Shown here: piece after piece, positions 5,414 to 44,903 of the stretch | Layout of the letters: every line of letters starts with the position of its first letter | Numbering within the stretch: the first letter of the stretch is position 1 | NCBI GenBank assembly: GCA_016187105.1 | Contig: JACPKK010000001.1 | Coordinates: 1-52,130 of the forward strand | Origin: Candidatus Curtissbacteria bacterium | GTDB taxonomy: Bacteria; Patescibacteriota; Microgenomatia; Curtissbacterales; GWA2-41-24 | Direction: 5' to 3' | Length of the DNA: 52,130 bases | The notes under the pieces: model-generated | Told to the model about the DNA's origin: nothing | Database searches by the model: none | Seen by the model: only the letters and a program-made list of their open reading frames with translations | Position numbers and translations under genes: made by a program

Positions 5414-5435
5414 ACTTAAAAGAAAATTCTAGGCA

Positions 5436-5509
5436 GATTCTGGACAAGCCCTTCGATTACACTCAGGGCAGTTGAAGGGCAGTGAGTTATATCGAACTGC
5501 CAGAATGAC
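5436..5509 (+). repeat. 74-nt TIR repeat, type A, copy 1 (GATTCTGG...CCAGAATGAC)
   Basis: About 96-99% identical to 28762..28835 and 37139..37212. It has terminal inverted repeats ATTCTGG/CCAGAAT and an inner 7-bp stem GGCAGTT/AACTGCC. It lies in a convergent intergenic spacer. Confidence 0.85.
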
Positions 5510-10424: not shown

Positions 10425-11255
10425 TCATTTCTCTCGCAATGACAGAAGGCGGATTCCGATTAGGATCAATAACAACGAGAGCAAATAAGCGACTTTGATG
10501 TCCCCTAATTTGGCCGTATCGATGCGCCAGATTTCGGCGACTCCCCGGCTGGCGCCGTAGAGAATGAGATAAAGGCCGAATACAGAACCCGGTTTATTGT
10601 TCGAGTTTACCCTGAACTTCCCTATTTTGAGGAAACTTCTCGACTCTCCGCCAGCTGGCGGATCGCTCGAAGAATAAAATCTCTTTGCCAATACAATCAG
10701 CAGGAAAAAGGCGATCAGTTCCAAAATCGCTTCGTAGAAAAATGTGGGATGGAAATGCGTCTGGAATAGATATTGGATTGGACGATGGGCGGGATCGATA
10801 TAAACTCCCCATGGCAGATTTGTCGGCGGGCCAAAGGCTTCCTGATTGACAAAGTTGCCGATTCTGCCGATTGCCTGACCGAGGATCAAAGACGGCGATA
10901 CAAGATCGAACAGGGATAAAAAATTGATTTTCTTAAACCTAGCAAAAATCCAAAAGCCAATAAAAACTCCGGCGAGGGCCCCGAAAATTCCCAGCCCCCC
11001 ATTTGTTATAGCTAAAATTTGATCGGGGCTTTGGGAGTAAAAACCCCATTTATCAATTACGTGATAAAGGCGGCCGCCGATAGTTCCAAGAATGAGTGGG
11101 GAAAGAAGTAGCGGATCATCAAATAAGGCGGGGCTGATTTTGTATAAAGGCGCCCGTCTTTTGGCGATGATCCAGCCCAGAAGAACGGCAATGGCGATTA
11201 CAAGGCCGTAGATATGGATGGTAAAGGGACCGAGGGGAAATGAATTAGGAATCAT
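10425..11255 (-). CDS. lgt: Prolipoprotein diacylglyceryl transferase, carrying an in-frame repeat insertion
   Basis: 276 aa. Typical Lgt pattern: IHIYGLVIAIAVLLGW..., GGRLYHV, GGLGIFGALAG, GQAIGRIGNFVNQEAFG, HPTFFYEA, YGASRG. There is an extra segment of about 25 aa, YSSSDPPAGGESRSFLKIGKFRVNSNNK. Confidence 0.85.
   Translation of the reverse strand: MIPNSFPLGPFTIHIYGLVIAIAVLLGWIIAKRRAPLYKISPALFDDPLLLSPLILGTIGGRLYHVIDKWGFYSQSPDQILAITNGGLGIFGALAGVFIGFWIFARFKKINFLSLFDLVSPSLILGQAIGRIGNFVNQEAFGPPTNLPWGVYIDPAHRPIQYLFQTHFHPTFFYEAILELIAFFLLIVLAKRFYSSSDPPAGGESRSFLKIGKFRVNSNNKPGSVFGLYLILYGASRGVAEIWRIDTAKLGDIKVAYLLSLLLILIGIRLLSLREK
10595..10677. repeat. Palindromic element (type B) inserted in frame in lgt
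   Basis: The hairpin CTTCTCGACTCTCCGCCAGCTGGCGGATCGCTCGAAGAA lies at 10636..10674, with ATTGTTCGAG at the other end. The same element and the same reading frame occur at 19152..19308. Confidence 0.75.
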
Positions 11256-11258
11256 TTA

Positions 11259-11909
11259 TTAAGTATTAAGAATATGACTTCTCGACTTCGCTCGAAGGAT
11301 AAAGGTGATGATAGCAATTACGGCTGACGAAATAAAAATATTGATGGCTAGGCGGTTTGCAAATTCCACGAAAAACTGCTCGGGGAAAAGTTTGATTAAA
11401 TTATCGTCGGCGGGAAAGAGCCAGAGGGTATTTGTAAATAAAATTTGATGGAATTTAAGGAAAAAGCTATCAAAAGCAGAAGATATTCCCAGCCCAAGCG
11501 CGGCAATGAAGAAAATGGTGGCGATCGATGAAACAAAGAGCGACCCGAGAATGATTTTTGACTGTCTTTTGAAAATCAGGGAAATGGCGATTACCAAGGC
11601 CGCAATGAGTGAGAGATAAAAAAGTCCATTTGCAAAAACCAGTAAATCGCGGACGTCTTTTAGGTGTGAAACAGCCTGCGTTGAGAAAAAATTGTGATCG
11701 AGTGTATTTTTTCCTCTAAAGTAGCCAAATAAATTATTGGTGGCGTCGTTTACAATTTTTTGATTTTCAAAATTCTGGTAGGTTCCAACTTTTCCATAAA
11801 GCGACTGGTAAAAACTGCGGTTTAAAATTAGATAGTTAAAATTTCCGAGAATAATTGAGGCTGGTATCAGCACAATAAGTAAATAGCCAAGGATTCTTGC
11901 GATGGTCAT
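11259..11909 (-). CDS. DUF1461/TIGR01906-like integral membrane protein (family of the lipoprotein intramolecular transacylase Lit, from memory)
   Basis: 216 aa with about 4 TM segments. It has SHLKDVRDL (H..DV motif) and [28 protein letters not shown], as I remember for DUF1461. It has an ATGA overlap with the copB stop and lies 3 nt upstream of lgt. Confidence 0.5.
11278..11298. repeat. Minimal type-B repeat module encoding the C-terminal tail (RAKSRSH) of the DUF1461 protein
   Basis: CTTCTCGACTTCGCTCGAAGG shares the 14-mer CTCGACTTCGCTCG with 33756..33769 in the gltX 5' end. Confidence 0.6.
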
Positions 11910-19005: not shown

Positions 19006-19710
19006 ATGATTTACACAAAAGGCGGAGACGGCGGTAAAACTTCTCTTTTTGGCGGAGAGAGGGTAGATAAAAATTCCGCGAGGATTGCGGCTTACGGAAC
19101 TGTTGATGAATTGAATTCACTCGTTGGAGTAATTATTGCAGAGTCAAATGATTATTCTTCGAGCGATCCGGCGAACGGCGGAGAGTCGAGAAGGAGTTCT
19201 CGACCACGTCCGAGATCGCAAGACGAAGTCGTTTTCGGCGGACAAGCTCGAACAATATGCAACGCATGTTGTTCTCGTCCTGAGCTACGTCGAAGGGCTC
19301 GAACAATAACAGACAAACTTCTCCGTATTCAAGCCGAGCTTTTTGTGTTGGGGTCGAGCCTGGCGGTAACTGGGAATATGAAGGTAAGGATGCCAAAAAT
19401 TTCCAAAGCGTGTGTCACTCGCCTGGAGAAAGAGATTGATATTTGGGAAAAGGGCTTAACTCCTCTTAAAAATTTTATTCTGCCTGGGGGCGGGAAAACT
19501 GGAGCGAAACTTCATTTAGCGCGGGCTGTTTGCCGTCGAGCGGAAAGATTGATAGTAGATTTAGACCGCTTGGACAAGCTAAATCCGAACGTATTAGTTT
19601 ATATTAATCGCCTTTCGGACTGGTTTTTTGTGGCGGCAAGATATGCCAATAAGCTGGAAAATATTCCTGAATGGGTTTGGAAAGGGCGTAAGCAAAAGGC
19701 GAAAATCTAA
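19006..19710 (+). CDS. PduO-type ATP:cob(I)alamin adenosyltransferase, with a ~50-aa in-frame repeat insertion
   Basis: MIYTKGGDGGKTSLFGGERVDKNSARIAAYGTVDELNSLVG...LLRIQAELFVLGSSLA...FILPGG...LHLARAVCRRAER...YINRLSDWFF. I use the ATG at 19006; the track start at 18982 is a TTG. Confidence 0.85.
   Translation: MIYTKGGDGGKTSLFGGERVDKNSARIAAYGTVDELNSLVGVIIAESNDYSSSDPANGGESRRSSRPRPRSQDEVVFGGQARTICNACCSRPELRRRARTITDKLLRIQAELFVLGSSLAVTGNMKVRMPKISKACVTRLEKEIDIWEKGLTPLKNFILPGGGKTGAKLHLARAVCRRAERLIVDLDRLDKLNPNVLVYINRLSDWFFVAARYANKLENIPEWVWKGRKQKAKI
19152..19308. repeat. Composite palindromic element (type B plus PFD-type module) inserted in frame in the adenosyltransferase gene
   Basis: The hairpin TTCTTCGAGCGATCCGGCGAACGGCGGAGAGTCGAGAAG lies at 19155..19193. 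GCTCGAACAATA occurs twice. The minus strand of 19271..19300 reads GAGCCCTTCGACGTAGCTCAGGAC. Confidence 0.75.
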
Positions 19711-20390
19711 AAAGTTAGGGAGTCGATCATTTTCTGGTGGATTGCGTTGAATTTTTGTTCGTCTTTGGTTTTAGCGTAAGATAAAAGCTTTAACACTACT
19801 CCGTCTTTTAAAATTGCAAAAACGTGCTGGTATTCGGTTTTTGGCCCTTCGAGAGCTGAAAAATGGCGGTCTATCGTATACTCCACCCCCCTACTACCTC
19901 CAATTTCTAAATTTTTGATTTTGGTTACTACCGATTTAACATCCAAAGGTTCCAGAATCTCTTTGCCTGCTTGCAGATTGTAAATTTTTTCAAATTCATT
20001 TTGGTCTACTTTTTCTTTGAGAGCCGAAAACTTAATGAGGATGGCACCGGGCGTCGCCTCTTTTACTTTTGGATCGGTGGTTTGGAAATTGGCGGCGTAG
20101 TCCCCATACTCGCGGACGAACCATTCACTCGGGTATTTGACGGAGAAACCGTAAGTTTTGTTCTCGTAAGTTTTCCACTCGGGCAGAACGTTTTCTACGT
20201 CCGATTTGGGTGATTGTACGTTGGAGAACCATTTTTGCAGCGAATCGCTGTTTAAAATAACAAGTACTAGGATGGCGAGGAGAATAAGCAGTATTAGCGG
20301 TTGGGCAAATCCCCCTTTCGATAGACGGTGCCATGCGATTCTTTCGAATCTAAGACTCAAGGTCTCGATGACTCGACTTTTGGCAGGCAT
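19707..20390 (-). CDS. Membrane-anchored hypothetical protein
   Basis: 227 aa with a TM segment at about residues 30-47. The first 15 codons are repeat-derived (SRVIETLS module). Confidence 0.55.
   Translation of the reverse strand: MPAKSRVIETLSLRFERIAWHRLSKGGFAQPLILLILLAILVLVILNSDSLQKWFSNVQSPKSDVENVLPEWKTYENKTYGFSVKYPSEWFVREYGDYAANFQTTDPKVKEATPGAILIKFSALKEKVDQNEFEKIYNLQAGKEILEPLDVKSVVTKIKNLEIGGSRGVEYTIDRHFSALEGPKTEYQHVFAILKDGVVLKLLSYAKTKDEQKFNAIHQKMIDSLTF
20356..20379. repeat. 24-nt module CTCAAGGTCTCGATGACTCGACTT (encodes SRVIETLS)
   Basis: 23/24 identical to 33740..33763 in the gltX 5' end. Confidence 0.75.
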
Positions 20391-20411: not shown

Positions 20412-20663
20412 TTATCTATAGACATCTTTTCTGTGATCGATTGTCAAAATCCAAATAATCTTTTTTCCATAATCAAATTCATAGATTATTCTGTATCTTG
20501 AAACCCTTAATTTGTATTTACCTTTAAGCTCCCGACGCAGCGGGGCACCGGCCTTAGGATTCTGGGCAAGCCTTTTGAGTCCTTGGGCGATTGCTTTTTG
20601 ATACCGATGATCCAGCGATTTTAATTGTTTTTCGCCCTCATTTGTGAGGAGGACTTTGTACAT
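20412..20663 (-). CDS. RelE/ParE-family type II toxin
   Basis: 83 aa. KYKLRVSRYRIIYEFDYGKKIIWILTIDHRKDVY is a typical RelE/ParE C-terminus. It abuts the antitoxin stop. Confidence 0.75.
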   Translation of the reverse strand: MYKVLLTNEGEKQLKSLDHRYQKAIAQGLKRLAQNPKAGAPLRRELKGKYKLRVSRYRIIYEFDYGKKIIWILTIDHRKDVYR

Positions 20664-20935
20664 TAGGAGAGCTTGAGATCTTTCAGGACATCTTCAAGCG
20701 GTTTGACTTTACCTGCTTTAATATCTTTTTCCCCGCGGCGGATAGAGGCCATAGTGACAGGGTTGGAAAGAATTTCCAAAGTATCAATCAGGGCATCATA
20801 TTCTTCCTTACTCATGAGAACCGCCTCCGGTTTACCGTTGCGGGTGATTGTAAAGCGAGAAAACATTTTGCTTGCATCATCAATGAGCTCGGCAAACTTA
20901 TTTCTTGCTTCGGTTAAAGGAAGAACAGTATTCAT
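20663..20935 (-). CDS. Phd/YefM-family antitoxin
   Basis: MNTVLPLTEARNKFAELIDDASKMFSRFTITRNGKPEAVLMSKEEYDALIDTLEIL. The start was trimmed to ATG 20935. Confidence 0.75.
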   Translation of the reverse strand: MNTVLPLTEARNKFAELIDDASKMFSRFTITRNGKPEAVLMSKEEYDALIDTLEILSNPVTMASIRRGEKDIKAGKVKPLEDVLKDLKLS

Positions 20936-21045
20936 AATGATTAAATTGTACAGAATTCTGGCTTTTATGTCAAATGGGAGGCTATGGTAAATCCCCTTTT
21001 CATAATTTAAGTTTAGCACAGAAATTATGGCGTGTAGCGGAAGGG

Positions 21046-21699
21046 TCAAAATTGTTTTAAGGCTTCTAAATGAAAATCATTGAGCGAGGTAATGACCATG
21101 TCGGCAATTAAAAGCCTTTTATCGTCTTTCATTTTTATGTCCGGAACTGCAACACATTTCATCCTTGCCGCTTTTGCAGCCAAGACACCATTTGGCGAAT
21201 CTTCAAATGCAAGACAATTCTGGGGAGGGATGCCGAGTTTTACAGCAGTCGTGATATAGACACCCGGATGCGGTTTCCCGTATGTTTCATGTTCGGCAGA
21301 GTGTATAACCTTAAAATAATCTTTTATACCGAGCTTATCTAATACAGCGTTTATTATTTCTGTTTGAGAGGATGATGCAATTGCCATTGGCAAGCCTGCT
21401 TTTTTAAATGTTTTGACGATTGCTTCTACTCCATCTTTGGCTATGCCTTTCTCATTTACCAGCTCAATTACTTTTTCTACGATTGTTGCTTCAACTTCTT
21501 TTTGGGTAGGTGTTTTCCATGGATAGCGAGAAAACCAGTGTTGTACTACCTCGTCTACCCGCAAGCCCATGGTCTCTTTTGTCATTTCCTCTGTTAAGGG
21601 GACGCCAACCGCGCTGAAAGTAGCGAGTTCCGCTTCTTCCCAGAGAGGCTCGCTATCTATGAGAAGGCCATCCATATCAAAAATAATTGCTTTAATCAT
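21046..21699 (-). CDS. HAD-IA family sugar-phosphate phosphatase
   Basis: IIFDMDGLLIDSEPLW is motif I (DxD). Downstream S/T, K and ED motifs are present. Confidence 0.8.
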   Translation of the reverse strand: MIKAIIFDMDGLLIDSEPLWEEAELATFSAVGVPLTEEMTKETMGLRVDEVVQHWFSRYPWKTPTQKEVEATIVEKVIELVNEKGIAKDGVEAIVKTFKKAGLPMAIASSSQTEIINAVLDKLGIKDYFKVIHSAEHETYGKPHPGVYITTAVKLGIPPQNCLAFEDSPNGVLAAKAARMKCVAVPDIKMKDDKRLLIADMVITSLNDFHLEALKQF

Positions 21700-22377: not shown

Positions 22378-22430
22378 GATTCTGGATATACAGAGCCATG
22401 CGGCCCGAACGGGTCTAAAGCCAGAATGAC
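22378..22430 (+). repeat. TIR repeat variant (GATTCTGG-N38-CCAGAATGAC), with a core different from type A
   Basis: It has the same termini and flanks (gcaG|ATTCTGG ... CCAGAAT|GACaa) as the type A copies. Confidence 0.65.
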
Positions 22431-22491: not shown

Positions 22492-25362
22492 TCAGCTACA
22501 TTTGCTCCAGCCGCAGATGACGTTTACGCATTTTTTGCAGCCTTCGGCGTAGATTAGGGGACTGCCGCAATCGGGGCAAGATGTAAATTTGGCTTCCAGC
22601 ATTTTTTCTTCTTCGTGGATGGAGGTAATAATTAAGCCGCTTGGGTCTTGCTTGTCAACGACTGCGGGAACTTGTGTGGAAATTAAGCTGTTTAAAGTCA
22701 TCTGGGCGGTTTTACCGTTGCCTGTGTGACCATTAGTGTAGCCATTGCCCTGCCTGCCGGCAGACAGGCTATAGCCGTTGGTGTGGCCATTTGTCTCTAA
22801 ATTGACTGACGTTTGGCCATTATCGGGGGACACTGGCTCCTCGCTAATTGGCAGCTGCAGCTGTTTGGCCTTGGCGATTTCCAGGAGTGATTTACCAACA
22901 GCATCAAATGCGCTAAGGACGCTGTCCGGGCCGAGGCCATAAGGGGTTCCGCAAGAAATACCAACCAAGTCGGAAGCCACTTCTTCAAGCGTCGCGCCGT
23001 ATTTAAGGGCGCGGGAGATTAGCCTGCCGGTGACTTCGGCAGATGCGGAGATATAACCGCCGGGTTTGCCGATATTGATAAACACTTCCACCGGAACACC
23101 ATCAACATCCCGATAAACCGCCGTGTAGACCCAGCCGACGTCGGCCCTTTTTCTGACGCGCATACCCCACGCCTCGTGCGGAGTGCGGCGTTTTCCGGGA
23201 AGCTGTGGTCCGCCCGGCGGCGAGACAGACAGTCCGCTAGCTGATTCGTCCAGGCGTTTGGCGGCCAGCCCCGCACCTTGCGGGGCAAGCTGATCGTAGT
23301 ACGATTTGTCTTTTTTAACTTCCAGGACTTGTTTGACGCGGGAACCGTCGCGGTAAATGGTAATCATGTGGCCGCCTAACTCGTAAGTTAACCAGTAAGC
23401 CTCGCGGACGTCTTCAACCGTGGCTTCACTGGGGAAGTTAATGGTTTTCGAGATGCCGTTGTCGGTAAACTTTTGGAAGGCTGCTTCCATGCGCACGTGG
23501 TCGGCAGGGGCAATATCACCGGCCACGACAAAGACTTTTTTGAGCTCGGGGGGGCAAGCGGCAAGATTCTGGATCGACCCTTTGTTTTCCCCGATCTGGG
23601 CAAGAAGCTCTTCGGAATATAATTCCTGATCTTCAAGGGCCTTTGTGAAATAGGGATTGGTATTAAAAAGCCTTTTACCTTCAATGGTGTTTTTGGCAAA
23701 GGTAAGGGCAAAATGCGGCTCGATGCCGCTGGAACAATCGGCAAGAAGCGAGATCGTGCCGGTTGGGGCAATGGTGGTGCGGGCACCGTTTCTGGGGCGG
23801 ATGCCGACTTTCCCACCTTCGCCCTTTCGACTTAGCTCAAGGCTTCGGCGGGCAGGTTTGTCGTAAATTGAGCCTTTGAATGCCGGGAAGACGCCGCGGA
23901 TTTTGGCGAGGCCCTCGCTGGCACTATCCGCCTCTTCCTGCACAAACTTCATGACTTTTTCGGCTAAATCAAAGCCTTCCTTCGTGTTATAGCCGATTCC
24001 CAGCTTGACGAGCATGTCGGCCCAACCCATAACCCCAAGGCCGACGCGGCGGATTTTGGCAGTCATCTCGTCGATTTGGTAAACCGGATACTCGTTCATA
24101 TCCAGAACGTTATCCAGAAAATGAATGGCGCAATGGATTGTTTTTTTCATCGCCTGCCAATCGATTGCTTCTTCGACCCTTCGACTTTCAGCCGCGGGGT
24201 AAACAAACTTGGAAAGATTGATTGAACCTAAGGTGCAGGCGTCATACGGGTGCAGGGGCTGTTCGGCGCAAGGGTTGGTGGCCTCGATTGGCCCAAATTT
24301 AGGGACGGGATTGGCGCGGGATTTGTTGACCCGATCAATTAAGATCAGACCCGGATCGCCGTATTGCCAGGCGAGCTTGGTGATTAAATCAAAAACTCTT
24401 TTGGCATTAAGTTTGTCCATGGTCTTGCCGGTCCTGGGATTAATGAGGTCGTAACCTTCACCTTCTTCTTTGGCCCGGCAAAGTTCGTAAAGCCTGGCCA
24501 CCCCTTCGTCGACCCGGACGTTTTTGAGATCGAGGTCGCGAATAGCATAGGCTTCTTTGATTTCTGCGACAATCGGGTCAAAATCCACCTCTAGTTGAGC
24601 ATACTGGGCATCTTTGTGAACCTGCTCCATAAACCCTTCGGTAACGGTAACGGAAATATTAAAGTTTGTCAGCGAAAATTCATCGATTTTGTGGACGGCA
24701 AAACGCAGGACATCAGGATGGTTATAATGGAGAATTCCCATGTTGGCACCACGCCTGACACCGCCCTGGCGGATTTGACTGCAGACGTCGTTATAGGCCT
24801 GCATAAAGGCTACAGGGCCGGTAGATTTGCCTTTGGAAGTGCCGATCATATCATCTTTGGGGCGAAGGTGGGAGAAAGAAAAACCGGTACCGCCAGCCAT
24901 TTTGTGGATCATGGCCATGTCGGACATGGTTTTTAGGATAGAACGCATATCGTCTTCGACCGGCAGAACGAAGCAGGCCGAAAGCGATTGGCCGATTTTG
25001 CCGGAGTTGACGAGAGTGGGCGTATTAGGAATAAAGCTTTGGGTAGCCATGAGTTCATAAAACTCGCGGGCGGCTACCTGGTGAACTTTTTTTGCGCGAC
25101 TTGACTCGCGGCGAGGCAGGTAGATGGTATCGGCGGCGGCAATATAATAAGCAACGCGCCAGAAGAGATCCTTGGGAGTTTCTATGGGATTACCCTTATC
25201 ATCCCGGAAAGCATACCGCGTTTTGGCAATATAGGCGGCATTTTCGGAAAGAGCAGGCTCAAACAAATCCTTGGGGGCTTGGGGGATTTTGCGGCCGAGC
25301 TTGCGAGCCGCTTCCCGTTCATGCTGTCTTAAATCGACTTTAATTTGGTTCAACTTTTTCAT
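22492..25362 (-). CDS. nrdJ: Class II (adenosylcobalamin-dependent) ribonucleotide reductase with a C-terminal Cys4 zinc ribbon
   Basis: 956 aa. Motifs: NPCAEQPL, TIAPTGTISLLADCSSGIEP, GISKTINFP. The C-terminus reads CPDCG...CKKC. Low-complexity linker: NGHTNGYSLSAGRQGNGYTNGHTGNG. Confidence 0.9.
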   Translation of the reverse strand: MKKLNQIKVDLRQHEREAARKLGRKIPQAPKDLFEPALSENAAYIAKTRYAFRDDKGNPIETPKDLFWRVAYYIAAADTIYLPRRESSRAKKVHQVAAREFYELMATQSFIPNTPTLVNSGKIGQSLSACFVLPVEDDMRSILKTMSDMAMIHKMAGGTGFSFSHLRPKDDMIGTSKGKSTGPVAFMQAYNDVCSQIRQGGVRRGANMGILHYNHPDVLRFAVHKIDEFSLTNFNISVTVTEGFMEQVHKDAQYAQLEVDFDPIVAEIKEAYAIRDLDLKNVRVDEGVARLYELCRAKEEGEGYDLINPRTGKTMDKLNAKRVFDLITKLAWQYGDPGLILIDRVNKSRANPVPKFGPIEATNPCAEQPLHPYDACTLGSINLSKFVYPAAESRRVEEAIDWQAMKKTIHCAIHFLDNVLDMNEYPVYQIDEMTAKIRRVGLGVMGWADMLVKLGIGYNTKEGFDLAEKVMKFVQEEADSASEGLAKIRGVFPAFKGSIYDKPARRSLELSRKGEGGKVGIRPRNGARTTIAPTGTISLLADCSSGIEPHFALTFAKNTIEGKRLFNTNPYFTKALEDQELYSEELLAQIGENKGSIQNLAACPPELKKVFVVAGDIAPADHVRMEAAFQKFTDNGISKTINFPSEATVEDVREAYWLTYELGGHMITIYRDGSRVKQVLEVKKDKSYYDQLAPQGAGLAAKRLDESASGLSVSPPGGPQLPGKRRTPHEAWGMRVRKRADVGWVYTAVYRDVDGVPVEVFINIGKPGGYISASAEVTGRLISRALKYGATLEEVASDLVGISCGTPYGLGPDSVLSAFDAVGKSLLEIAKAKQLQLPISEEPVSPDNGQTSVNLETNGHTNGYSLSAGRQGNGYTNGHTGNGKTAQMTLNSLISTQVPAVVDKQDPSGLIITSIHEEEKMLEAKFTSCPDCGSPLIYAEGCKKCVNVICGWSKCS
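22748..22768. repeat. 21-bp palindrome CCCTGCCTGCCGGCAGACAGG inside nrdJ (encodes SLSAGRQG)
   Basis: One of four copies; see 25371, 41724 and 50184. Confidence 0.8.
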
Positions 25363-25840
25363 GCTTTAGGCCCTGTCTGCCGGCAGGCAGGCTCTTTGAT
25401 AATTTTGCCAGTTCTTTTTCAAAATCCGAAAGGTCGGCAAATTGTCTATAAACAGACGCGAACCTGATGTAGGCAACTTCGTCCAGCTTTTTCAGTTTAC
25501 GGATTACGAGTTCGCCGATCCTTTTTGACAAAACTTCGTCTTTGCCGTCTTTTCTTAAATCCCCTTCTACCTCATCGATAATCTTTTCAATATCGTCGGC
25601 CGAAACCGGCCGCTTCTCGCACGATTTGATAATACCGCTTCGCAATTTGCTTCTATCAAAAATTTCCCTCTTGCCGTCCTTTTTAATAACTAAAAGATCA
25701 AGCGTTTCAACCCTCTCGAAGGTTGTAAACCGGCGGCTACATTTTTGGCACTGGCGCCTGCGCCTAGTTGTTTTACCGTCGGTGCCTTCTCTTTTATCGA
25801 TAACCGCAGTCTTATCGAAGCTACAAAACGGACAAATCAC
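25340..25840 (-). CDS. nrdR: Transcriptional repressor NrdR
   Basis: MICPFCSFDKTAVIDKRE...CQKCSRRFTTFE is the zinc ribbon, followed by an ATP-cone. It has a GTG start with the SD AAGAGGAAG. It overlaps the nrdJ start by 23 nt. Confidence 0.9.
   Translation of the reverse strand: MICPFCSFDKTAVIDKREGTDGKTTRRRRQCQKCSRRFTTFERVETLDLLVIKKDGKREIFDRSKLRSGIIKSCEKRPVSADDIEKIIDEVEGDLRKDGKDEVLSKRIGELVIRKLKKLDEVAYIRFASVYRQFADLSDFEKELAKLSKSLPAGRQGLKHEKVEPN
25371..25391. repeat. 21-bp palindrome CCCTGTCTGCCGGCAGGCAGG in the nrdR 3' tail (encodes SLPAGRQG)
   Basis: Read directly from the sequence. Confidence 0.8.
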
Positions 25841-28025: not shown

Positions 28026-28054
28026 ATTCTATTTTTTAACTGGGGGTTTGGCAA
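28026..28054 (-). promoter_or_regulatory. Putative promoter (TTGCCA-N17-TAGAAT) for ORF 26912..27979
   Basis: The minus strand reads tctcTTGCCAaacccccagttaaaaaaTAGAAT. Confidence 0.4.
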
Positions 28055-28131
28055 GAGATAAGACCTTGAGTTTAAAATTTGCTCGAGATGAAATATTTTA
28101 CTCATTTGAAGCTAAATTATTGTTGTCGGTA

Positions 28132-28137
28132 TATAAT
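28132..28137 (+). promoter_or_regulatory. -10 box TATAAT 6 nt before the MTHFS ATG (leaderless candidate)
   Basis: The sequence reads ggTATATAATtgctttATG, with no SD. Confidence 0.4.
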
Positions 28138-28143
28138 TGCTTT

Positions 28144-28758
28144 ATGGAAATTTCTAAAAGTGAGTTAAGAAAAAGCTTAATTGCAAAAAGATCTGGTCTT
28201 TCCACAAAAAGTGTTGAAGAAAAAAGTAGACAGATTGCAAAAAAGATGATGGAAAGCGATCTTTTTTTAAAAACAAAAATTGTTTCGGCATATTTACCAA
28301 TCCGCGGCGAGGTCAGCACAAAACCAATTATTAATTTTTTAATAGAGGCAGGTGTCGAGGTCTATCTGCCAAAATCTTTTGGCGAGGAATATAAGCTGGT
28401 GAGGTTTAAATCGTGGAATGATCTGGAAAAAGGACCTTATGGAATTTTAGAACCTCTTTCTCCTAGTCATCCTGAATTTAGTTCAGGATCTAAAAAGATG
28501 CTGAAACAAGTTCAGCATGACAAAGTGGATATAGATTTAGCATTTATTCCTGGCGTGGCTTTTGATAAAAATGGCGTAAGACTTGGATACGGCAAAGGAG
28601 TTTTTGACAGGCTTTTTGCAAAAAGCGAAGCGACTTTGGTGGGGCTGGCTTATGAATTTCAGATTGTTGACGAGCTTCCCCGAGAAGAACATGATTTGGT
28701 AATGGATTATGTTGTAACCCCATCCTCTGTCATCCTGAGCGGAGCGAAGGATCTATAA
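28144..28758 (+). CDS. 5-formyltetrahydrofolate cyclo-ligase (MTHFS), with an internal and a C-terminal repeat-derived segment
   Basis: LRKSLIAKR..., YLPIRGEV, GPYGILEP, DLAFIPGVAFDKNGVRLGYGKGVFDR. The start was trimmed to ATG 28144. Confidence 0.8.
   Translation: MEISKSELRKSLIAKRSGLSTKSVEEKSRQIAKKMMESDLFLKTKIVSAYLPIRGEVSTKPIINFLIEAGVEVYLPKSFGEEYKLVRFKSWNDLEKGPYGILEPLSPSHPEFSSGSKKMLKQVQHDKVDIDLAFIPGVAFDKNGVRLGYGKGVFDRLFAKSEATLVGLAYEFQIVDELPREEHDLVMDYVVTPSSVILSGAKDL
28466..28521. repeat. Twin-hairpin element inserted in frame in MTHFS
   Basis: Two 8-bp stems: ATCCTGAA-N5-TTCAGGAT (28469..28489) and ATGCTGAA-N5-TTCAGCAT (28498..28518). Together they encode SHPEFSSGSKKMLKQVQHD. Confidence 0.7.
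28729..28753. repeat. Type E-like module GTCATCCTGAGCGGAGCGAAGGATC forming the MTHFS C-terminus (VILSGAKDL)
   Basis: Related to 37090..37127 and 38926..38957. Confidence 0.65.
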
Positions 28759-28761
28759 CCT

Positions 28762-28835
28762 GATTCTGGGCGAGCCCTTCGATTACACTCTGGGCAGTTG
28801 AAGGGCAGTGAGTTATATCGAACTGCCAGAATGAC
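28762..28835 (+). repeat. 74-nt TIR repeat, type A, copy 2
   Basis: See 5436..5509. It lies in the convergent spacer between MTHFS and PCD. Confidence 0.85.
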
Positions 28836-29393: not shown

Positions 29394-30521
29394 TTAGATA
29401 TTTTTAATTTTTTCCCAAGGGAACTGGTCCCTTCCGAAATGACCGTAGGCGGCAGTTTCCAGGTAAATCGGTCTTCTTAAATCCAACTCTTCGATTATGC
29501 CCCTGACAGAAGTATCGATTAATTTTTCAATAAAGCTTATAAGCACTTTTTGGGAAACACGGGCAGTGCCGAATGTTTCTACTTCCTGCATCAGAGGCTT
29601 TTTGGCGCCAATAAAATAGGCCAGACTAACTTCGGCTCGGGAGGCAAGTTTATGGGCGACAATGTTTTTGGCAATAAACCTTGCGGCGTACGCGCCGGAT
29701 CTATCTACTTTGGTCGGATCTTTACCGCTGAAACATCCGCCGCCAACCCGGGCGTAACCGCCGTATGTGTCAACGACGATCTTCCTGCCGGTCAGCCCGG
29801 AATCAGAAGCCGGACCGCCAATATGCCAAACCCCAGTCCCGTTAACAATGACCTTGTCTTTAGGAACTTCCAGCCCATAAGTTTCCAAGACTTTGCTGAC
29901 AACATATTTATATAAATCGGCTTTGACTTGCGTGAGCCTTACTTTTTGATCGTGAGGAACAGCAATGACGACTGTCGAAACGCCAACAGGCTTACCGTTT
30001 TTATACTCAACCGTTACCAGTGATTTGCCATCCGGCCTAAGATAGGGAATTGATTTACTTTTTCTCGCATCGTCGATTGCTTTGGTAATTTCGTGAGCGA
30101 GCGTTATCGGTAAAGGCATTAATGACTTAGTTTCGGTGCAAGCAAAACCGAACATGATTCCCTGATCACCGGCTCCGTCATTGTCAACGCCAGCGGCAAT
30201 TTGGGGTGATTGTCCAGATACATAAATTTCTATTGGTGACTGGTAAGTAAAATTAAAGCGCTTTTTAGTGTAGCCTAGGCTTTTAATTTGATTCCTGGAG
30301 ATATCTTCAAGGCTGATGCGGGCGCTGGTTGTCAGTTCGCCGACAATAATGAGTCTGTTTTTAGCAGCCATCGTCTCTATGGCCACACGGCCCTGCTGAT
30401 CTTGGGCCAACACTTCATCCAATATAGCGTCGCTTATCTGGTCACAAATTTTATCCGGATGACCGGCACAAACAGATTCGGAAGTAAAACTTGAGGATAA
30501 TTTTTGTCTTTTTGCGACCAT
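29394..30521 (-). CDS. metK: S-adenosylmethionine synthetase
   Basis: 375 aa. Motifs: GHPDKICDQISDA, GAGDQGIMFGFA, GGGCFSGKDPTKVDRSGAY. Confidence 0.95.
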   Translation of the reverse strand: MVAKRQKLSSSFTSESVCAGHPDKICDQISDAILDEVLAQDQQGRVAIETMAAKNRLIIVGELTTSARISLEDISRNQIKSLGYTKKRFNFTYQSPIEIYVSGQSPQIAAGVDNDGAGDQGIMFGFACTETKSLMPLPITLAHEITKAIDDARKSKSIPYLRPDGKSLVTVEYKNGKPVGVSTVVIAVPHDQKVRLTQVKADLYKYVVSKVLETYGLEVPKDKVIVNGTGVWHIGGPASDSGLTGRKIVVDTYGGYARVGGGCFSGKDPTKVDRSGAYAARFIAKNIVAHKLASRAEVSLAYFIGAKKPLMQEVETFGTARVSQKVLISFIEKLIDTSVRGIIEELDLRRPIYLETAAYGHFGRDQFPWEKIKNI

Positions 30522-30602
30522 ATCTACCTTTTAGGTACAGGCACCGTGGCTAAATTAGGCTCGGTTGCCGGTCCGCCGATGACGGACTCTCTTGATACAA
30601 CA
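30522..30602 (-). ncRNA. Candidate SAM-I-clan riboswitch (SAM-I / SAM-IV / SAM-I/IV-like) in the metK leader
   Basis: The minus strand reads UUGUAUCAAGAGAGUCCGUCAUCGGCGGACCGGCAACCGAGCCUAAUUUAGCCACGGUGCCUGUACCUAAAAGGUAGAU-AUG. Core strings AUCAAGAG, GGCAACC and GGUGCC occur in the SAM-I order. A possible P1 (GUAUC/GAUAU) overlaps the start codon. Confidence 0.45.
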
Positions 30603-30607
30603 AAAAG

Positions 30608-32492: not shown

Positions 32493-33789
32493 TTACCCTT
32501 TCTAATGTTTCCTCTTTTCCGATAATGCTCACTGACTCTGGTAACGGCGGAGTAACAAGATTTCCAAATGTAGCAACACCTAAACTCCTGTATAGATCTT
32601 TTGTTTCTACGCTATGCACTCTTGCGAATTCTGCTGTTCCTGCCCGTATCATGTCAGGATTCCAATCAATCTTTTCTAAGTCTTTTGCATATTGACTAAT
32701 AGTCGCTCCAGAGAGGGGGGCGGCTTTGATTACAGGATTGGTCAAGGGTGGCTTTTTATAGAATGAATCAGCCAATTTGGGAAAATCAGCTATTGATCCT
32801 ATTCGTCCTTGTACCAGCGGTATCACGCTCAACGTTACTTTCGAAGCATATGCATGAGGGAATTTGTCATTCAGTTTTTTATAAAAATCGTTTGGCGATA
32901 GTTTTTTCAACCACTGTTGATTGAACCATTGCAGTTTTTCCAAGTTAAAAATCGGGCTGTTTTTGTTGAGGCGGTCGAGCGAGAATTCACTGACCAGCTC
33001 ATCCAGAGTAAACAGCTCCCTGTCGCCTTTCGGGGCCCAGCCCAAAAGCGCTAAAAAGTTAACGATCGCTTCCGGCAGATATCCTTCTTCGACGTACTCG
33101 ATGACGGATTTTGCGCCGCCTCTCTTGGAAAGTTTTGTGTGGCCTGACCCGAGAATCGGCGGGAGGTGGACGAAATGGGGATGCTTCCATCCAAACGCTT
33201 CGTAAAGAAGAAGGTGTTTCGGTGTTGAAGAAATCCATTCATCACCGCGCATGACGTGGGAAATTTCTAAATCGTGGTCATCGACGACAGAAGCAAAATG
33301 ATAAGTGGGGAAACCGTCGGATTTTACGATTACAAAATCTTCGATAACGTCTGAAGAAAACTTAACCGGCCCATGAACAACATCATTCCAAGTAAGATTT
33401 TTACCTTTTTCGACTTTGAAGCGCCAGGCGCCTTGATCTTCGTAAGCAAGTTTCTTAACTTTGAGAATCTCGAGGTGCTTATTGTAGATGTCGAGCCGTT
33501 TTGATTGGTGTTCTTCTTCATCCCATTTTAGATTAAGCAGAATAAGGCTTTCTTTTATTTTGTCTACGGATTCGGGAACGAGACGGGCACGATCGGTATC
33601 CTCGATACGCAGCAAAAACTCTCCGCCTTGGTTTTTAGCAAAAAGGTAGTTAAAAAGGGCGGTACGAATATTGCCAATATGGGGAATTCCGGTTGGCGAA
33701 GGGGCGTATCGAACACGAATCCCTCGACCCTTCGACGAACTCAGGGTCTCGATGACTCGACTTCGCTCGGAACCAATGGCTTTAGACAT
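32467..33789 (-). CDS. gltX: Glutamyl-tRNA synthetase with a repeat-derived N-terminal extension
   Basis: IRVRYAPSPTGIPHIGNIRTALFNYLFAK..GGEFLLRIEDTDRAR and KLSKRGG. The first ~20 codons (MSKAIGSERSRVIETLSSSKGRG) are built from repeat modules. Confidence 0.9.
   Translation of the reverse strand: MSKAIGSERSRVIETLSSSKGRGIRVRYAPSPTGIPHIGNIRTALFNYLFAKNQGGEFLLRIEDTDRARLVPESVDKIKESLILLNLKWDEEEHQSKRLDIYNKHLEILKVKKLAYEDQGAWRFKVEKGKNLTWNDVVHGPVKFSSDVIEDFVIVKSDGFPTYHFASVVDDHDLEISHVMRGDEWISSTPKHLLLYEAFGWKHPHFVHLPPILGSGHTKLSKRGGAKSVIEYVEEGYLPEAIVNFLALLGWAPKGDRELFTLDELVSEFSLDRLNKNSPIFNLEKLQWFNQQWLKKLSPNDFYKKLNDKFPHAYASKVTLSVIPLVQGRIGSIADFPKLADSFYKKPPLTNPVIKAAPLSGATISQYAKDLEKIDWNPDMIRAGTAEFARVHSVETKDLYRSLGVATFGNLVTPPLPESVSIIGKEETLERVSELAKKKK
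33740..33770. repeat. Repeat modules in the gltX 5' end (CTCAGGGTCTCGATGACTCGACTT plus CTCGACTTCGCTCGG)
   Basis: It shares 23/24 nt with 20356..20379 and a 14-mer with 11281..11294. Confidence 0.75.
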
Positions 33790-37089: not shown

Positions 37090-37127
37090 GTCATTCTGGG
37101 GACGAGCGGAGCGAGGACTCCAGAATC
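37090..37127 (+). repeat. Type E hairpin repeat GTCATTCTGGGGACGAGCGGAGCGAGGACTCCAGAATC
   Basis: Its termini (GTCATTCTGG...CCAGAATC) match those of the reverse-complemented type A element. Confidence 0.75.
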
Positions 37128-37138
37128 AAATCTATTCA

Positions 37139-37212
37139 GATTCTGGACGAGCCCTTCGATTACACTCAGGGCAGTTGAAGGGCAGTGAGTTATATCGAAC
37201 TGCCAGAATGAC
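37139..37212 (+). repeat. 74-nt TIR repeat, type A, copy 3
   Basis: See 5436..5509. It lies between the recJ stop and the aspS start. Confidence 0.85.
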
Positions 37213-38889: not shown

Positions 38890-38911
38890 ATTCTGGACGA
38901 GCCAGAATGAC
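38890..38911 (+). repeat. Minimal TIR repeat (ATTCTGGACGAGCCAGAATGAC; type A termini without the core)
   Basis: Read directly from the sequence. Confidence 0.65.
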
Positions 38912-38925
38912 CGGTTTCTTACTTT

Positions 38926-38957
38926 GTCATTCTGGGGAGCGGAGCGACTCCGGAATC
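38926..38957 (+). repeat. Type E hairpin repeat GTCATTCTGGGGAGCGGAGCGACTCCGGAATC
   Basis: Related to 37090..37127. Confidence 0.7.
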
Positions 38958-41723: not shown

Positions 41724-41744
41724 CCTTGCCTGCCGGCAGGCAGG
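41724..41744. repeat. 21-bp palindrome CCTTGCCTGCCGGCAGGCAGG in the secD-secF spacer
   Basis: Read directly from the sequence. Confidence 0.8.
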
Positions 41745-43775: not shown

Positions 43776-44903
43776 TTAATATGTTACCGTGTTTCCAACC
43801 GGTACAGTTTGAATCCAAATTTGTCCCCTATTAAAAGTAATTTCCTTTCCTTTTGCATCTTTATAGATTGTGCGATCTTCCCTTGTCTTTTTATTCCAAG
43901 TGCCTTTAGTGACCTTGCCATCCATAAAGATTAGCGCGTTGCCAGTGCCGGTTGTTTTATAGAGAAGATGGCCATCCGGGTAACCGTCGTTGGCCGTGCT
44001 TTCGACTTGAAACTGGACGATGACATTTTTGGGTGACATTTGTTCTGTGGTCACGGGGTCGATTTGGGCAACGCCGGCAATAAACCTTTGGTAGACATTG
44101 GTATTTTTGTCGTACTGCCAAGTAACCGTGTAATCGGGTGCTTGTTCCCAGAACGGAGTAGTAATAGGTTTTTGGTCGCCGCGGGCCTCCAGTGCCGCGT
44201 CGTCTTTAAATTTCCACTTAATGAAGCCGTCATCCCATTTTTCGCCGTCTTTATTTTCCGGGCCGAAACCCCGCTCCTGGGCCGCTTCCCAAAGTTTTTT
44301 GGTGGTGGAGTGGACGTTATGGGGAGCAAGTTTATCAGTACCGCGCCAATAAGTGGGGAATCCTAGGCCGAATTGGTCCATATCTAAAATGCCATAATCG
44401 CGGATTTGGCCGAGCGCGTTCGCCGGCCCCGGAGTATTGGCGCCGCCGACGTGGGCGTAGGCGGCGTTATATTCCAAAACCCAATCCAAAAAATAGGTAC
44501 GGGCGCTTCTGATCGGGGCTAAATCCCCAACGTCTTGGCAAAAGAAAATGTCTAGGGTTCTGGTGATGCCGCCTTCGGCAACAACTTCATAAACTATATC
44601 GGCTCTTGAAAGACCGATAATGGGCCGGGCGTCCGCGTGGTTTTCGATCATGACGGCCAGCGGTCTTCTTTTCTTCCACTGATCTTCACGGGTTTTTGAA
44701 TACATTGCACCGTTTATGGGGCACTGGCGGTCTTTTTGGCCTTCATCGCCATCAGAAGTGACATCGGTAAGACTGCCGAATGGTGTTGAAATGTTGACAG
44801 GACTGTTTAAAAGACTCGCGAAAACCAGATAGGAAACGCCTGCGGAGGCAGCATATAAGATTAATGCACCAATAAAAATCAATAGAAGCTTTTTATTTAA
44901 CAT
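43776..44903 (-). CDS. DUF3048 (YerB-like) secreted or anchored protein
   Basis: 375 aa. RPLAVMIENHADARPIIGLSRADIVYEVVAEGGITRTL is typical of DUF3048. Confidence 0.65.
   Translation of the reverse strand: MLNKKLLLIFIGALILYAASAGVSYLVFASLLNSPVNISTPFGSLTDVTSDGDEGQKDRQCPINGAMYSKTREDQWKKRRPLAVMIENHADARPIIGLSRADIVYEVVAEGGITRTLDIFFCQDVGDLAPIRSARTYFLDWVLEYNAAYAHVGGANTPGPANALGQIRDYGILDMDQFGLGFPTYWRGTDKLAPHNVHSTTKKLWEAAQERGFGPENKDGEKWDDGFIKWKFKDDAALEARGDQKPITTPFWEQAPDYTVTWQYDKNTNVYQRFIAGVAQIDPVTTEQMSPKNVIVQFQVESTANDGYPDGHLLYKTTGTGNALIFMDGKVTKGTWNKKTREDRTIYKDAKGKEITFNRGQIWIQTVPVGNTVTY

Follow-up and report, generated by a model that had tools for sequence, protein, structure and literature searches.

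A probable copy of a non-autonomous palindromic element, in frame in the PduO-type adenosyltransferase gene of a Candidatus Curtissbacteria bacterium

REP doublets (REPINs) and BIMEs of proteobacteria are inverted doublets of imperfect palindromes that form a long hairpin and are built of mosaic units and linkers. They are mostly intergenic and non-autonomous and leave no target-site duplication, and the REP and BIME copies that we know of are extragenic. Palindromic repeats of a different kind, the Rickettsia palindromic elements (RPEs), measure ~100–150 bp and lie in frame in unrelated housekeeping genes (Ogata et al., 2000, summarised in PMC10969869). Within the host protein their conserved peptide falls where the fold can accommodate it, and further copies lie between genes (PMC10969869). 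Correia/NEMIS, RUP and intragenic ERIC represent the classical bacterial MITEs (review PMC10969869, citing Delihas, 2007).

The locus described here lies in a stretch of 52,130 nt (the window) from Candidatus Curtissbacteria, a tiny groundwater bacterium. An earlier note on this DNA had proposed that a PduO-type adenosyltransferase gene is colonised by palindromic repeats in the manner of RPEs. This proposal is supported, since DNA of one repeat family is found in frame in unrelated genes and here forms a predicted disordered loop on an intact fold. The 156-nt segment is very probably a copy of a non-autonomous, multi-copy palindromic element, MITE- or REPIN-like, that is tolerated in a permissive loop of the enzyme. 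The RPE-like kind is already known and the palindromic family is new, the comparison with RPEs having been made by description. In common with RPEs, a palindromic repeat occupies fold-compatible sites in unrelated housekeeping genes in frame, and has intergenic copies too. The family differs from RPEs in its sequence, which is apparently unrelated, and in its hosts, which are CPR, Omnitrophota and others but not Rickettsia (all family hosts from the genome scan are non-rickettsial). It differs further in having four boxes with exchangeable hairpin cassettes, in boxes that are near-identical across deeply diverged orthologues, in the presence of several families in one loop, and in recent cassette turnover. 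The earlier note was aware of no systematic description for CPR-like genomes; literature searches likewise found no account of palindromic in-frame elements in CPR, of these boxes, or of MITEs in Patescibacteria or Omnitrophica, and returned only primer coincidences and general reviews.

The host gene (19006..19710, plus strand) encodes a PduO-type ATP:cob(I)alamin adenosyltransferase of 234 aa, identical to NCBI protein P0001 of Candidatus Curtissbacteria; ORF, sequence and peptide are exactly as first noted. The protein matches the Pfam profile PF01923 (E = 7.3e-56, 189 bits, cut-off 24) in two stretches, one on each side of the insert. In a 32-sequence alignment it keeps 46 of the 46 invariant columns (e.g., Y3, G7, D8, G10 and T12), and the conserved N-terminal nucleotide-binding segment is intact. 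The AF2 model has helices at residues 25–48, 92–120, 134–149, 164–189 and 194–217, giving a predicted five-helix bundle that Foldseek matches to the solved PduO-type structures 3CI1, 2NT8, 3KE4, 1RTY and 2IDX with TMt of 0.83–0.93. By sequence and predicted fold, the enzyme thus belongs to the same family as L. reuteri PduO (3CI1), B. subtilis YvqK (1RTY) and human MMAB (2IDX).

Alignment places the indel boundaries at 19153..19308 (plus strand), a whole in-frame insert of 156 nt or 52 codons with the peptide YSSSDPANGGESRRSSRPRPRSQDEVVFGGQARTICNACCSRPELRRRARTI. Its terminal inverted repeat spans 19152–19309 (TTATTCTTCGAGC / GCTCGAACAATAA, 12 of 13 positions complementary). That the gene holds an in-frame insert with no stop codon was confirmed from the ORF, the Pfam match and the alignment to 3CI1, in which query residues 2–44 correspond to chain residues 9–51 and residues 97–229 to 57–190, with 52 residues against 5 between them. 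The insert position is the loop between helix 1 and helix 2, which is 52 residues long in the window protein and ~5 in the L. reuteri enzyme. Baseline orthologues are 181–182 aa long with a loop of 9 residues, the form found in 66 of 115 close homologues; insert-free relatives carry this short loop and not a segment of the same length, and the insert is lineage-specific. A metagenome scan for Curtissbacteria PduO loci recovered mostly distant insert-free homologues and served as a negative control: in 80 of 80 the matched region was 447–579 nt, against ~675 nt in the window gene.

The insert stands out in composition (GC 0.54–0.57, flanks ~0.43–0.47) and in folding (z-score −3.3 to −3.6). In the AF2 model, residues 49–91 are coil with pLDDT of ~47–53, and the core blocks mostly exceed 90. 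The structure prediction thus puts the segment, as a probable surface loop, between two helices of a confident model, where it would form a disordered loop and leave the PduO fold otherwise intact. Loop length is naturally variable in the PduO family, which would suit a native lineage-specific low-complexity linker unrelated to repeat DNA; an assembly artefact would be the other way to do without repeats. Both readings are scarcely credible in view of the dispersed DNA family described below and of the assemblies: five independent runs each yielded the identical 234-aa protein, which also counters the earlier worry about a chimera. The insert consists of repeat DNA rather than a native linker, because it belongs to a multi-copy family that is also in frame in lgt, in the tail of Lit and in housekeeping genes elsewhere, and because it is absent from insert-free orthologues.

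The insert comprises a four-box palindromic element (105 nt) and an extra right half-unit (51 nt). The order within the element is TATTCTTCGAGCG, hairpin, GTCGAGAAG, spacer, TTCTCGAC, hairpin, GCTCGAACAATA. Box A (TATTCTTCGAGCG; 19153..19165, plus strand) is the left terminus and reads as YSSS; it is identical in the orthologues L001, L004 and L131, and other genomes have it at 118 loci or more. It is followed by variable hairpin 1 (ATCCGGCGAACGGCGGAGA; 19166..19184, plus strand), to which a copy in lgt has a near-identical cassette (TCCGCC-AGCT-GGCGGA), and by box A' (GTCGAGAAG; 19185..19193, plus strand), identified by pattern scan and family anatomy. Box B (TTCTCGAC; 19197..19204, plus strand) folds with A' into an inner stem of 8 bp that encloses the loop GGAG. 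Variable segment 2, hairpin-rich and 41 nt long (19205..19245, plus strand; fold and family anatomy), leads to box B' (GCTCGAACAATA; 19246..19257, plus strand), the right terminus of the 105-nt core, which pairs with box A in the A:B' outer stem of the family. Boxes A and B' form the outer pair and A' and B the inner pair, with two variable hairpin cassettes between them, and the A-hairpin-A' half is the reverse complement of the B-hairpin-B' half. The extra half-unit (19258..19308, plus strand) consists of a linker, a B-like box (GTTCTCGTC; 19271–19279, plus strand), a hairpin cassette (GTCCTGAGCTACGTCGAAGGGC; 19277–19298, plus strand) matching the cassettes of the D1 repeat and of L119, and a second B' box (GCTCGAACAATA; 19297–19308, plus strand) that repeats the first (19246–57) as a 12-nt direct repeat.

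Recurrence of hairpin modules elsewhere in the window had been noticed before and holds, with the refinement that the modules belong, as boxes and cassettes, to a single four-box element and an extra half-unit. A copy of the first hairpin module is found at 10636–10677 (minus strand; 88% over 42 nt, E = 5e-7), and the opposite-strand module at 19278–19298 corresponds to the cassette of D1, an intergenic repeat. In the window, 2 matches to the pattern TTCTTCGAGC-N(8-34)-TCGAGAAG were found, against 0.00 expected from shuffles. The 52-kb window holds three copies of the family, namely two full copies and a half-unit in Lit. The second full copy (10594..10677, minus strand; 84 nt or 28 codons) is in frame in lgt (10425–11255, minus strand), encodes YSSSDPPAGGESRS...NSNNK, agrees with the PduO copy in orientation and frame relative to the host gene, and is missing from the LGT of L002, L004 and L005. 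The half-unit (11278..11302, minus strand), an A box with one mismatch followed directly by A', forms the C-terminal tail ILRAKSRS of Lit/DUF1461 (11259–11909, minus strand).

The window also contains other repeats. D1 occurs three times between genes on the plus strand: at 5425..5509, with a cassette (CCCTTCGA..CTCAGGG) that is also in the PduO insert, at 28751..28835, and at 37128..37212, with a partner end GTCATTCTGG at 37090–37099. The first D1 copy is homologous to an element inside the PduO gene of P0004. A hairpin element of the form GTCAT...ATGAC (28466..28521, plus strand) belongs to a different palindromic family (fold z = −4.5) and is a window-specific insert in frame in MTHFS (28048–28758, plus strand; peptide SHPEFSSGSKKMLKQVQHD). 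The nrdJ gene has a window-specific insert with the cassette CCCTTTCGACTTAGCTCAAGG (23822..23842, plus strand; peptide PARRSLELSRKGEGG) and the palindrome CTGCCTGCCGGCAGACAG (22750..22767), translated SLSAGRQG; a sister copy of the palindrome at 25373–25390 gives SLPAGRQG in the tail of nrdR, and a third, at 41726–41743, is intergenic. The N-terminal extension of gltX contains a 25-nt repeat module (33739..33763, minus strand) that is 96% identical to the N-terminus of ORF 19707 (20355–20379).

The earlier estimate that 12 of 53 CDS contain repeat-derived codons holds only in part. Eleven of the 12 were examined, and such codons were verified in eight genes: lgt, Lit/DUF1461, PduO, ORF 19707, nrdJ, nrdR, MTHFS and gltX. 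The product of the PCD gene, with 93 residues for 90 profile positions, shows no obvious insertion. In cca, the 14-mer at 39539 was rejected as a repeat copy; it sits just past the Pfam head-domain match (residues 22–145), which has no extra length, and encodes LLRAIRFA, which we take to be a conserved motif of CCA enzymes. RecJ, "the nuclease" of that count, was likewise rejected, having no internal repeat-derived segment and palindromes only outside the ORF. Spikes in GC content were too noisy to detect inserts; the strongest (44375–44488) falls within a DUF3048 gene whose product contains no repeat-like peptide.

Beyond the window, the scan for modules showed a dispersed family. At least 118 loci in MAGs of CPR, Omnitrophota and other groups contain it, against ~7 by chance (a rough estimate); its true phylogenetic breadth is uncertain because some MAG labels, e.g., 'uncultured Gammaproteobacteria', may be unreliable. 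The family is not CPR-specific and is abundant in Omnitrophota and other MAGs too. Unique full four-box units (n = 66) are 54–126 nt long. The variable segments of these units form hairpins (mean MFE −5.0 against −1.6 when shuffled, and −3.9 against −1.8) and the spacer is unstructured, and the A:B' outer stem folds in 60 of 63 family members. The scan for phage carriage gave 0 matches on viral contigs.

About a quarter of the 70 oriented full units lie in long ORFs (19 ORF-spanning rows, 18 distinct positions). In-frame copies with no stops are present in PduO, lgt and Lit in the window and in ten further enzyme families in other genomes, where in-gene hosts are Mur ligases, GltX, PfkB, NAD synthase, RecJ, LeuRS, TsaD and pseudouridine synthases. 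One frame, with the peptide YSSS(E/D)...ESRS...ARTI, is used in 13 of the 19 rows. All six frames are open at similar rates (30–47 of 70); the one in use gives the most hydrophilic peptide (−1.02). Its frame and lack of stop codons suggest that the PduO insert is translated. It could also be an intron- or intein-like intervening sequence, removed from RNA or protein to leave a mature enzyme with no loop. The strong secondary structure of the segment would fit, and rRNA insertions are known in CPR genomes (PMC10221324). This reading is nevertheless very improbable because the in-gene copies are all frame-keeping, stop-free and strongly biased to one frame, which would be needless if the segment were spliced out. 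Rfam searches gave no match, including to self-splicing introns, in 19100–19360 even at a permissive E = 10, and at the gathering threshold found only two tRNAs and a SAM-I/IV riboswitch in the whole window. At 52 aa, the product is also much too short for any intein known to us.

The content of this loop varies between orthologues. The element occupies the same site in L001, L004 and L131, L129 is empty, and L002 and L130 carry other palindromic families there. Among close homologues the loop is expanded in 49 of 115, and some palindromic family is found in the loop of 43% of close orthologues. A single ancient insertion in the ancestor of a Curtissbacteria subclade, inherited vertically as an immobile element whose boxes are kept by gene conversion or DNA-level constraint, would explain why four orthologues share the codon position and frame of the element and why no transposase was found in 118 loci. 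The distribution of insert types is patchy, however. On a weakly resolved tree of 171 columns, the loop pattern needs at least 25 parsimony steps and the 14 YSSS taxa alone need 10, and P0007, the window's neighbour on that tree, is empty. The variable cassettes differ completely between orthologues, other families sit at the same site, and near-identical strains differ by clean in-frame cassette indels of 51 nt and 33 nt, which mark recent change; the 51-nt one resembles in kind the extra half-unit of the window copy. A single ancient event is therefore unlikely, though it deserves serious consideration. The PduO loop is probably a permissive site that has been repeatedly occupied and remodelled by several palindromic families.

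The boxes, by comparison with the cassettes, are strongly conserved at the nucleotide level. They are identical to the window copy at 40–42 of 42 positions, and at 39–42 of 42 over six orthologue pairs, in orthologues chosen partly for encoding YSSS, that is, box A, a choice that biases the comparison for box A and leaves A', B and B' unaffected. Four-fold synonymous identity among the same orthologues is 0.35–0.43, i.e., saturated. This conservation despite saturation, and across phyla, could mean that the boxes serve a DNA-level host function, e.g., as sites bound by a conserved DNA-binding protein or as an uptake or recombination signal, the in-gene copies being tolerated instances and not selfish ones. 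The symmetry of the two strands agrees with such a role, as do the half-units of Omnitrophota, which lie close upstream of start codons with an orientation bias of 32 against 13. Against it, the genomic context of intergenic full copies equals background, copy number is low (3 in the 52-kb window), no candidate binding protein was found, and mobile repeats typically show such high turnover and nesting, so that a host function appears improbable. A terminator or other RNA-level function was rejected: there is no enrichment between convergent genes, full copies between genes favour neither orientation (16 against 18), and the strands differ neither in G.U pairs (16 and 14) nor in folding energy, which is equal.

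The preferred reading of a MITE- or REPIN-like element implies mobility and a mobilising enzyme, both of which are presumed. No transposase or other linked protein family was found in the 118 loci, where the top family occurred in only 9 and all top families were housekeeping. Within 8 kb at each of these 118 loci, there was no recurring non-housekeeping protein that would point to a parent insertion sequence with the same ends, and no RAYT gene. The MITE features of the family are terminal inverted repeats with 12 of 13 positions complementary, small size (54–126 nt) and absence of its own coding capacity. A terminal TA is present in 58–59 of 59 copies. A simple model of TA target-site duplication, as for IS630/mariner-like elements, does not fit the in-ORF copies, whose lengths fall in the classes 0 and 1 mod 3 but never in 2; the recent cassette indels also misfit, with no duplication >1 nt. 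With classical MITEs the family shares small size, terminal inverted repeats, terminal TA, many copies and occasional in-frame fusion with host ORFs, but it spans several phyla and has neither a demonstrable target-site duplication nor a parent insertion sequence in the 118 loci. With REPINs and BIMEs it shares the inverted doublet of imperfect palindromic units and the long outer-stem hairpin, as well as the mosaic of units and linkers, a mostly intergenic location and a presumably non-autonomous nature. Unlike them, it has no RAYT in the 118 loci and no GTAG-type 5' motif, and a quarter of its copies are inside genes and apparently translated.

On this basis the following course may be proposed. 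The whole element can potentially fold as a four-way junction or cruciform, and copies would land in, or be replaced at, many genomic sites. Those that break genes would be removed by selection, and the in-gene survivors would be found in permissive loops or termini with a frame-keeping length, mostly in the one orientation and frame whose peptide (YSSS...ESRS...ARTI or RSNN) is the most hydrophilic. The window copy would have gained, beside its core, a second half-unit (B-cassette-B') of 51 nt. The insert is most likely transcribed and translated straight through, and its product would be a hydrophilic Ser/Arg/Glu-rich loop, predicted to be disordered, that leaves the fold intact.

In-frame colonisation of essential genes by palindromic DNA occurs beyond Rickettsia, in CPR and Omnitrophota, and is common there. 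The elements inflate and diversify protein loops and mark permissive sites of enzymes, and their recurrent peptides (YSSSE..ESRS..ARTI, HPERSEGS..AQNDQ and SLRG..RRSNLE..) can mislead homology searches and clustering. Because box conservation can be set against saturated synonymous sites and clean cassette indels, it becomes possible to ask what moves and maintains such elements in minimal genomes. A tentative and rather doubtful answer is that the four-box element is shared by several phyla, among them many CPR classes, Omnitrophota and perhaps further groups, and is actively maintained at the DNA level. A conserved candidate enzyme or binding protein would directly constrain its 42 box nucleotides, and the element would grow by hairpin cassettes entering hairpin loops and recolonise the same permissive loops of housekeeping enzymes. 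If true, the proteomes of ultra-small bacteria would owe much of their variation in disordered loops, and of their 'junk peptide' annotation, to an element of this kind, a major source not described before.

In this contig of 52,130 bp, the gene at 19006-19710 (+) encodes a product identical to an NCBI protein entry named Candidatus Curtissbacteria, the source organism, which belongs to the CPR Microgenomates. Pfam PF01923 (cobalamin adenosyltransferase) matches this product with E = 7e-56, split into two stretches. Alignment with 31 homologues, a check proposed in an earlier note, and comparison with solved structures showed that helix 1 and helix 2 are separated by 52 additional residues; against L. 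reuteri PduO (3CI1), query residues 2-44 correspond to residues 9-51 and query residues 97-229 to residues 57-190. The in-frame insert (19153-19308, +; 156 nt) has a GC content of 0.54-0.57 vs about 0.43-0.47 in its surroundings and folds better than shuffles (z = -3.3 to -3.6), and the peptide and hairpin modules listed for it in the earlier note were all found where it had placed them. The segment is absent from 80 of 80 distant PduO homologues retrieved from metagenomes, and 66 of the 115 parsed closest homologues have a baseline 9-residue loop. An assembly chimera is very unlikely because the same 234-aa protein was assembled, identical, in five independent sequencing runs. In some orthologues a second, smaller insertion site lies between helix 2 and helix 3 (columns 198-208 of alignment A1; homologues P0075, P0102 and P0104), with peptides such as PAKGRSASGG. 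Directly downstream of the PduO locus is a ParE-toxin/PhdYeFM-antitoxin pair (20412-21049, -; Pfam families, called genes of locus L124).

Comparison of orthologous genes and a scan of species-representative genomes resolved the modules as parts of one defined element with four boxes. Boxes A (TATTCTTCGAGCG) and A' (GTCGAGAAG) enclose variable hairpin 1, boxes B (TTCTCGAC) and B' (GCTCGAACAATA) enclose variable hairpin 2, and the two halves, in this order, are joined by a short spacer without structure; the termini are W-TA-TTCTTCGAGCG and CTCGAACAR-TA-W. A pairs with B' and A' with B, which allows the unit to adopt a four-way-junction fold; the outer A:B' stem forms on folding in 60 of 63 unique units among the matches listed. 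The variable segments form hairpins whose sequences are unrelated, or consist of minimal GCGAAGC-type mini-hairpins; their mean folding energies among the matches listed are -5.0 vs -1.6 kcal/mol for shuffles, and -3.9 vs -1.8. These cassettes exchange between the two positions from copy to copy. The PduO insert comprises a core unit (19153-19257, +; 105 nt) and an extra right half-unit (19258-19308, +; 51 nt) in which a hairpin cassette lies between a B-like box and a second B' box, which is why GCTCGAACAATA is present twice. The half-unit cassette, GTCCTGAGCTACGTCGAAGGGC, is related to that of D1, an 85-nt intergenic repeat with three copies in the window. One of these copies, which lies downstream of recJ, is flanked by GTCATTCTGG / CCAGAATGAC ends (37090-37212), and such ends also make a perfect inverted repeat of 10 bp immediately 5' of the recJ start (38902-38935); more CCAGAATGAC ends occur at 22421 and 5500.

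The modules recur elsewhere, as claimed. A second full copy is in frame in lgt (10594-10677, -; 84 nt, 28 codons); its orientation and reading frame within the host gene match those of the PduO copy (peptide YSSSDPPAGGESRS vs YSSSDPANGGESRR), and it is not present in the LGT of three syntenic relatives. A half-unit (A plus A') makes up the C-terminal tail of Lit/DUF1461, and the hairpin-module pattern has 2 matches in the window vs 0.00 expected from shuffles. Of 12 genes said to contain repeat-derived codons, eight are supported, since such codons were found in each: lgt, Lit/DUF1461, PduO, ORF 19707 and four genes with codons from other palindromic families, namely nrdJ (the cassette CCCTTCGA..CTCAAGG plus the palindrome CTGCCGGCAG), nrdR (C-terminal tail SLPAGRQG), MTHFS (a GTCAT...ATGAC hairpin, fold z-score -4.5) and gltX (N-terminal extension with a 25-nt module in common with ORF 19707). 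The claim is not supported for cca, where the head-domain match has no extra length and the 14-mer encodes LLRAIRFA, presumably an enzyme motif that is conserved, or for RecJ; PCD has no obvious insertion. In the C-terminal region of nrdJ (22702-23313), GC peaks at 0.75 within a stretch of 612 nt that encodes low-complexity sequence (…NGHTNGYSLSAGRQGNGYTNGHTGNGK…) and several small window-specific inserts. At L004:12781-15522 (GCA_000993165.1) nrdJ is a called fragment of 655 aa followed by a gap, whereas a near-identical ENA contig (L005:12781-15588) has an intact 935-aa nrdJ; an assembly error or an insertion may account for the difference. A SAM-I/IV riboswitch aptamer (30490-30603, -; 54.2 bits vs a gathering score of 41.1) sits upstream of ORF 29394-30521 (-).

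The behaviour of the element inside genes was examined for 70 oriented full units among the matches listed, requiring a long ORF that extends 50 codons or more to either side. There were 19 ORF-spanning rows, representing 18 distinct positions (locus L020 is spanned on both strands), in genes for Mur ligases, GltX, a PfkB kinase, NAD synthase, RecJ, LeuRS, TsaD and pseudouridine synthases. Of the 19, 13 share a single orientation and frame, whose peptide is YSSS(E/D)...ESRS...SSR...(ARTI or RSNNx). Stop avoidance does not explain this bias, because each of the six frames is open in a similar share of the units (30-47 of 70); the favoured frame gives the most hydrophilic peptide (mean hydropathy -1.02 vs -0.27 to -0.66 in the others). 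Among the matches listed, no unit in an ORF has a length of 2 mod 3 (all are 0 or 1), and a unit of length 2 mod 3 would have its terminal TAA read as a stop codon. The frame bias, the six open frames, the hydrophilic frame choice and the length classes all fit translation through the element and subsequent selection, and do not fit its removal from the RNA. The AlphaFold2 model of the window PduO (mean pLDDT 82.5; most 10-residue core blocks > 90) keeps the five-helix bundle, with target-normalised TM-scores of 0.83-0.93 to solved PduO-type enzymes, and residues 49-91 are coil at pLDDT about 47-53. From the length of helix 1 in the model (24 residues), we infer that the loop at its C-terminal end would lie at the opposite bundle pole from the N-terminal nucleotide-binding segment. 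The gene looks functional, as all 46 of 46 invariant alignment columns are kept.

The element occupies one codon position common to the window and the orthologous loci L001, L004 and L131. The site is empty in L129, which encodes the closest core relative (P0007, 69% identity), and in L002 and L130 it holds two other palindromic families, both GTCAT...ATGAC-ended. The loop is expanded in 49 of 115 close homologues (43%; 14 of four-box type, about 17 of GTCAT type, the rest of other types), a pattern that needs at least 25 changes on a loop-masked, weak tree. A recurrent expansion, (E)GVRPLxGVEPLKR (P0019, P0033, P0043, P0077, P0082, P0086 and P0117), looks like a short duplication, not a palindromic element. 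Two pairs of otherwise identical genes differ solely by clean in-frame indels within elements: 51 nt in P0004/P0005, where a cassette was lost or gained in the loop of a simple hairpin in an element homologous to D1, and 33 nt in P0003/P0006. Between the window gene and its element-carrying orthologues, four-fold synonymous identity is 35-43%, near saturation, the cassettes are entirely different, and 40-42 of the 42 box nucleotides are identical (box A was partly pre-selected, as orthologues were chosen via the YSSS peptide; A', B and B' were not). Protein-level selection on a disordered loop cannot yield near-identical boxes beside near-saturated synonymous sites, and the boxes are either under constraint at the DNA level or restored through re-insertion or gene conversion.

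In the genome collection, at least 118 loci match the pattern TATTCTTCGAGCG-N(6-32)-TCGAGAAG vs about 7 by chance (the author's rough estimate, not computed by a tool). Among the matches listed, CPR hosts are Curtiss-, Levyi-, Roizman-, Gottesman-, Doudna-, Portnoy-, Uhr-, Berkel- and Saccharibacteria, Paceibacterota, Moraniibacteriota and CPR2; the others are Omnitrophota, often with several copies per contig, Elusimicrobia, Auribacterota, WOR-3, one Actinomycetota MAG and one Nanoarchaeia MAG. Canonical four-box units, several in frame in housekeeping genes, also occur in MAGs labelled 'uncultured Gammaproteobacteria' or 'Pseudomonadales' (L008, L010, L020, L029, L032, L038, L061, L064 and others); either these labels are possibly incorrect or the family may genuinely reach Proteobacteria. 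A few matches, such as L051 and L090, have none of the remaining boxes and resemble the matches expected by chance. Viral contigs gave zero matches, and no Rfam family matches the insert (window at gathering threshold; permissive scan of 19100-19360). In Omnitrophota (e.g., L057:2354-6630, L014, L019, L054, L110 and L120), a 49-nt A...A' variant often comes directly after a B' box (…GCTCGAACAA|TATTCTTCGAGCG…), with an RBS and start codon following a few bases later, and half-units are biased relative to flanking genes (32 in the same orientation, 13 opposite, among the matches listed).

The hairpins are symmetric Watson-Crick palindromes, with 16 and 14 G.U pairs of about 400 on the two strands and equal folding energies among the matches listed. 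Full units in intergenic positions have no preferred orientation (16 against 18) and a background-like flanking-gene context, again among the matches listed. Strand symmetry, lack of orientation bias and background-like context argue against a strand-specific RNA signal or terminator and for an element that would act at the DNA level. Its TA termini recall TA-targeting transposons; a simple TA duplication is unsupported by the in-frame length classes and indel junctions, and no recurring transposase or other non-housekeeping family was found near the copies among the matches listed. Imperfect palindromic units arranged as an inverted doublet, with cassettes in mosaic combination, make REPIN or BIME logic the closest match in architecture; in behaviour within genes, the closest are Rickettsia palindromic elements (RPEs), which a 2024 review presents as the most extreme in-frame MITE insertion known (PMC10969869). 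The RPE-like interpretation in the earlier note is supported and its observation confirmed. Searches of the literature gave no account of in-frame palindromic elements in CPR, nor of these boxes, and the four-box elements are apparently a new, undescribed family of a kind already known. What the analysis adds is the spread across phyla, the conservation of the boxes at nucleotide level, a hot-spot loop used by several families, and recent cassette turnover.
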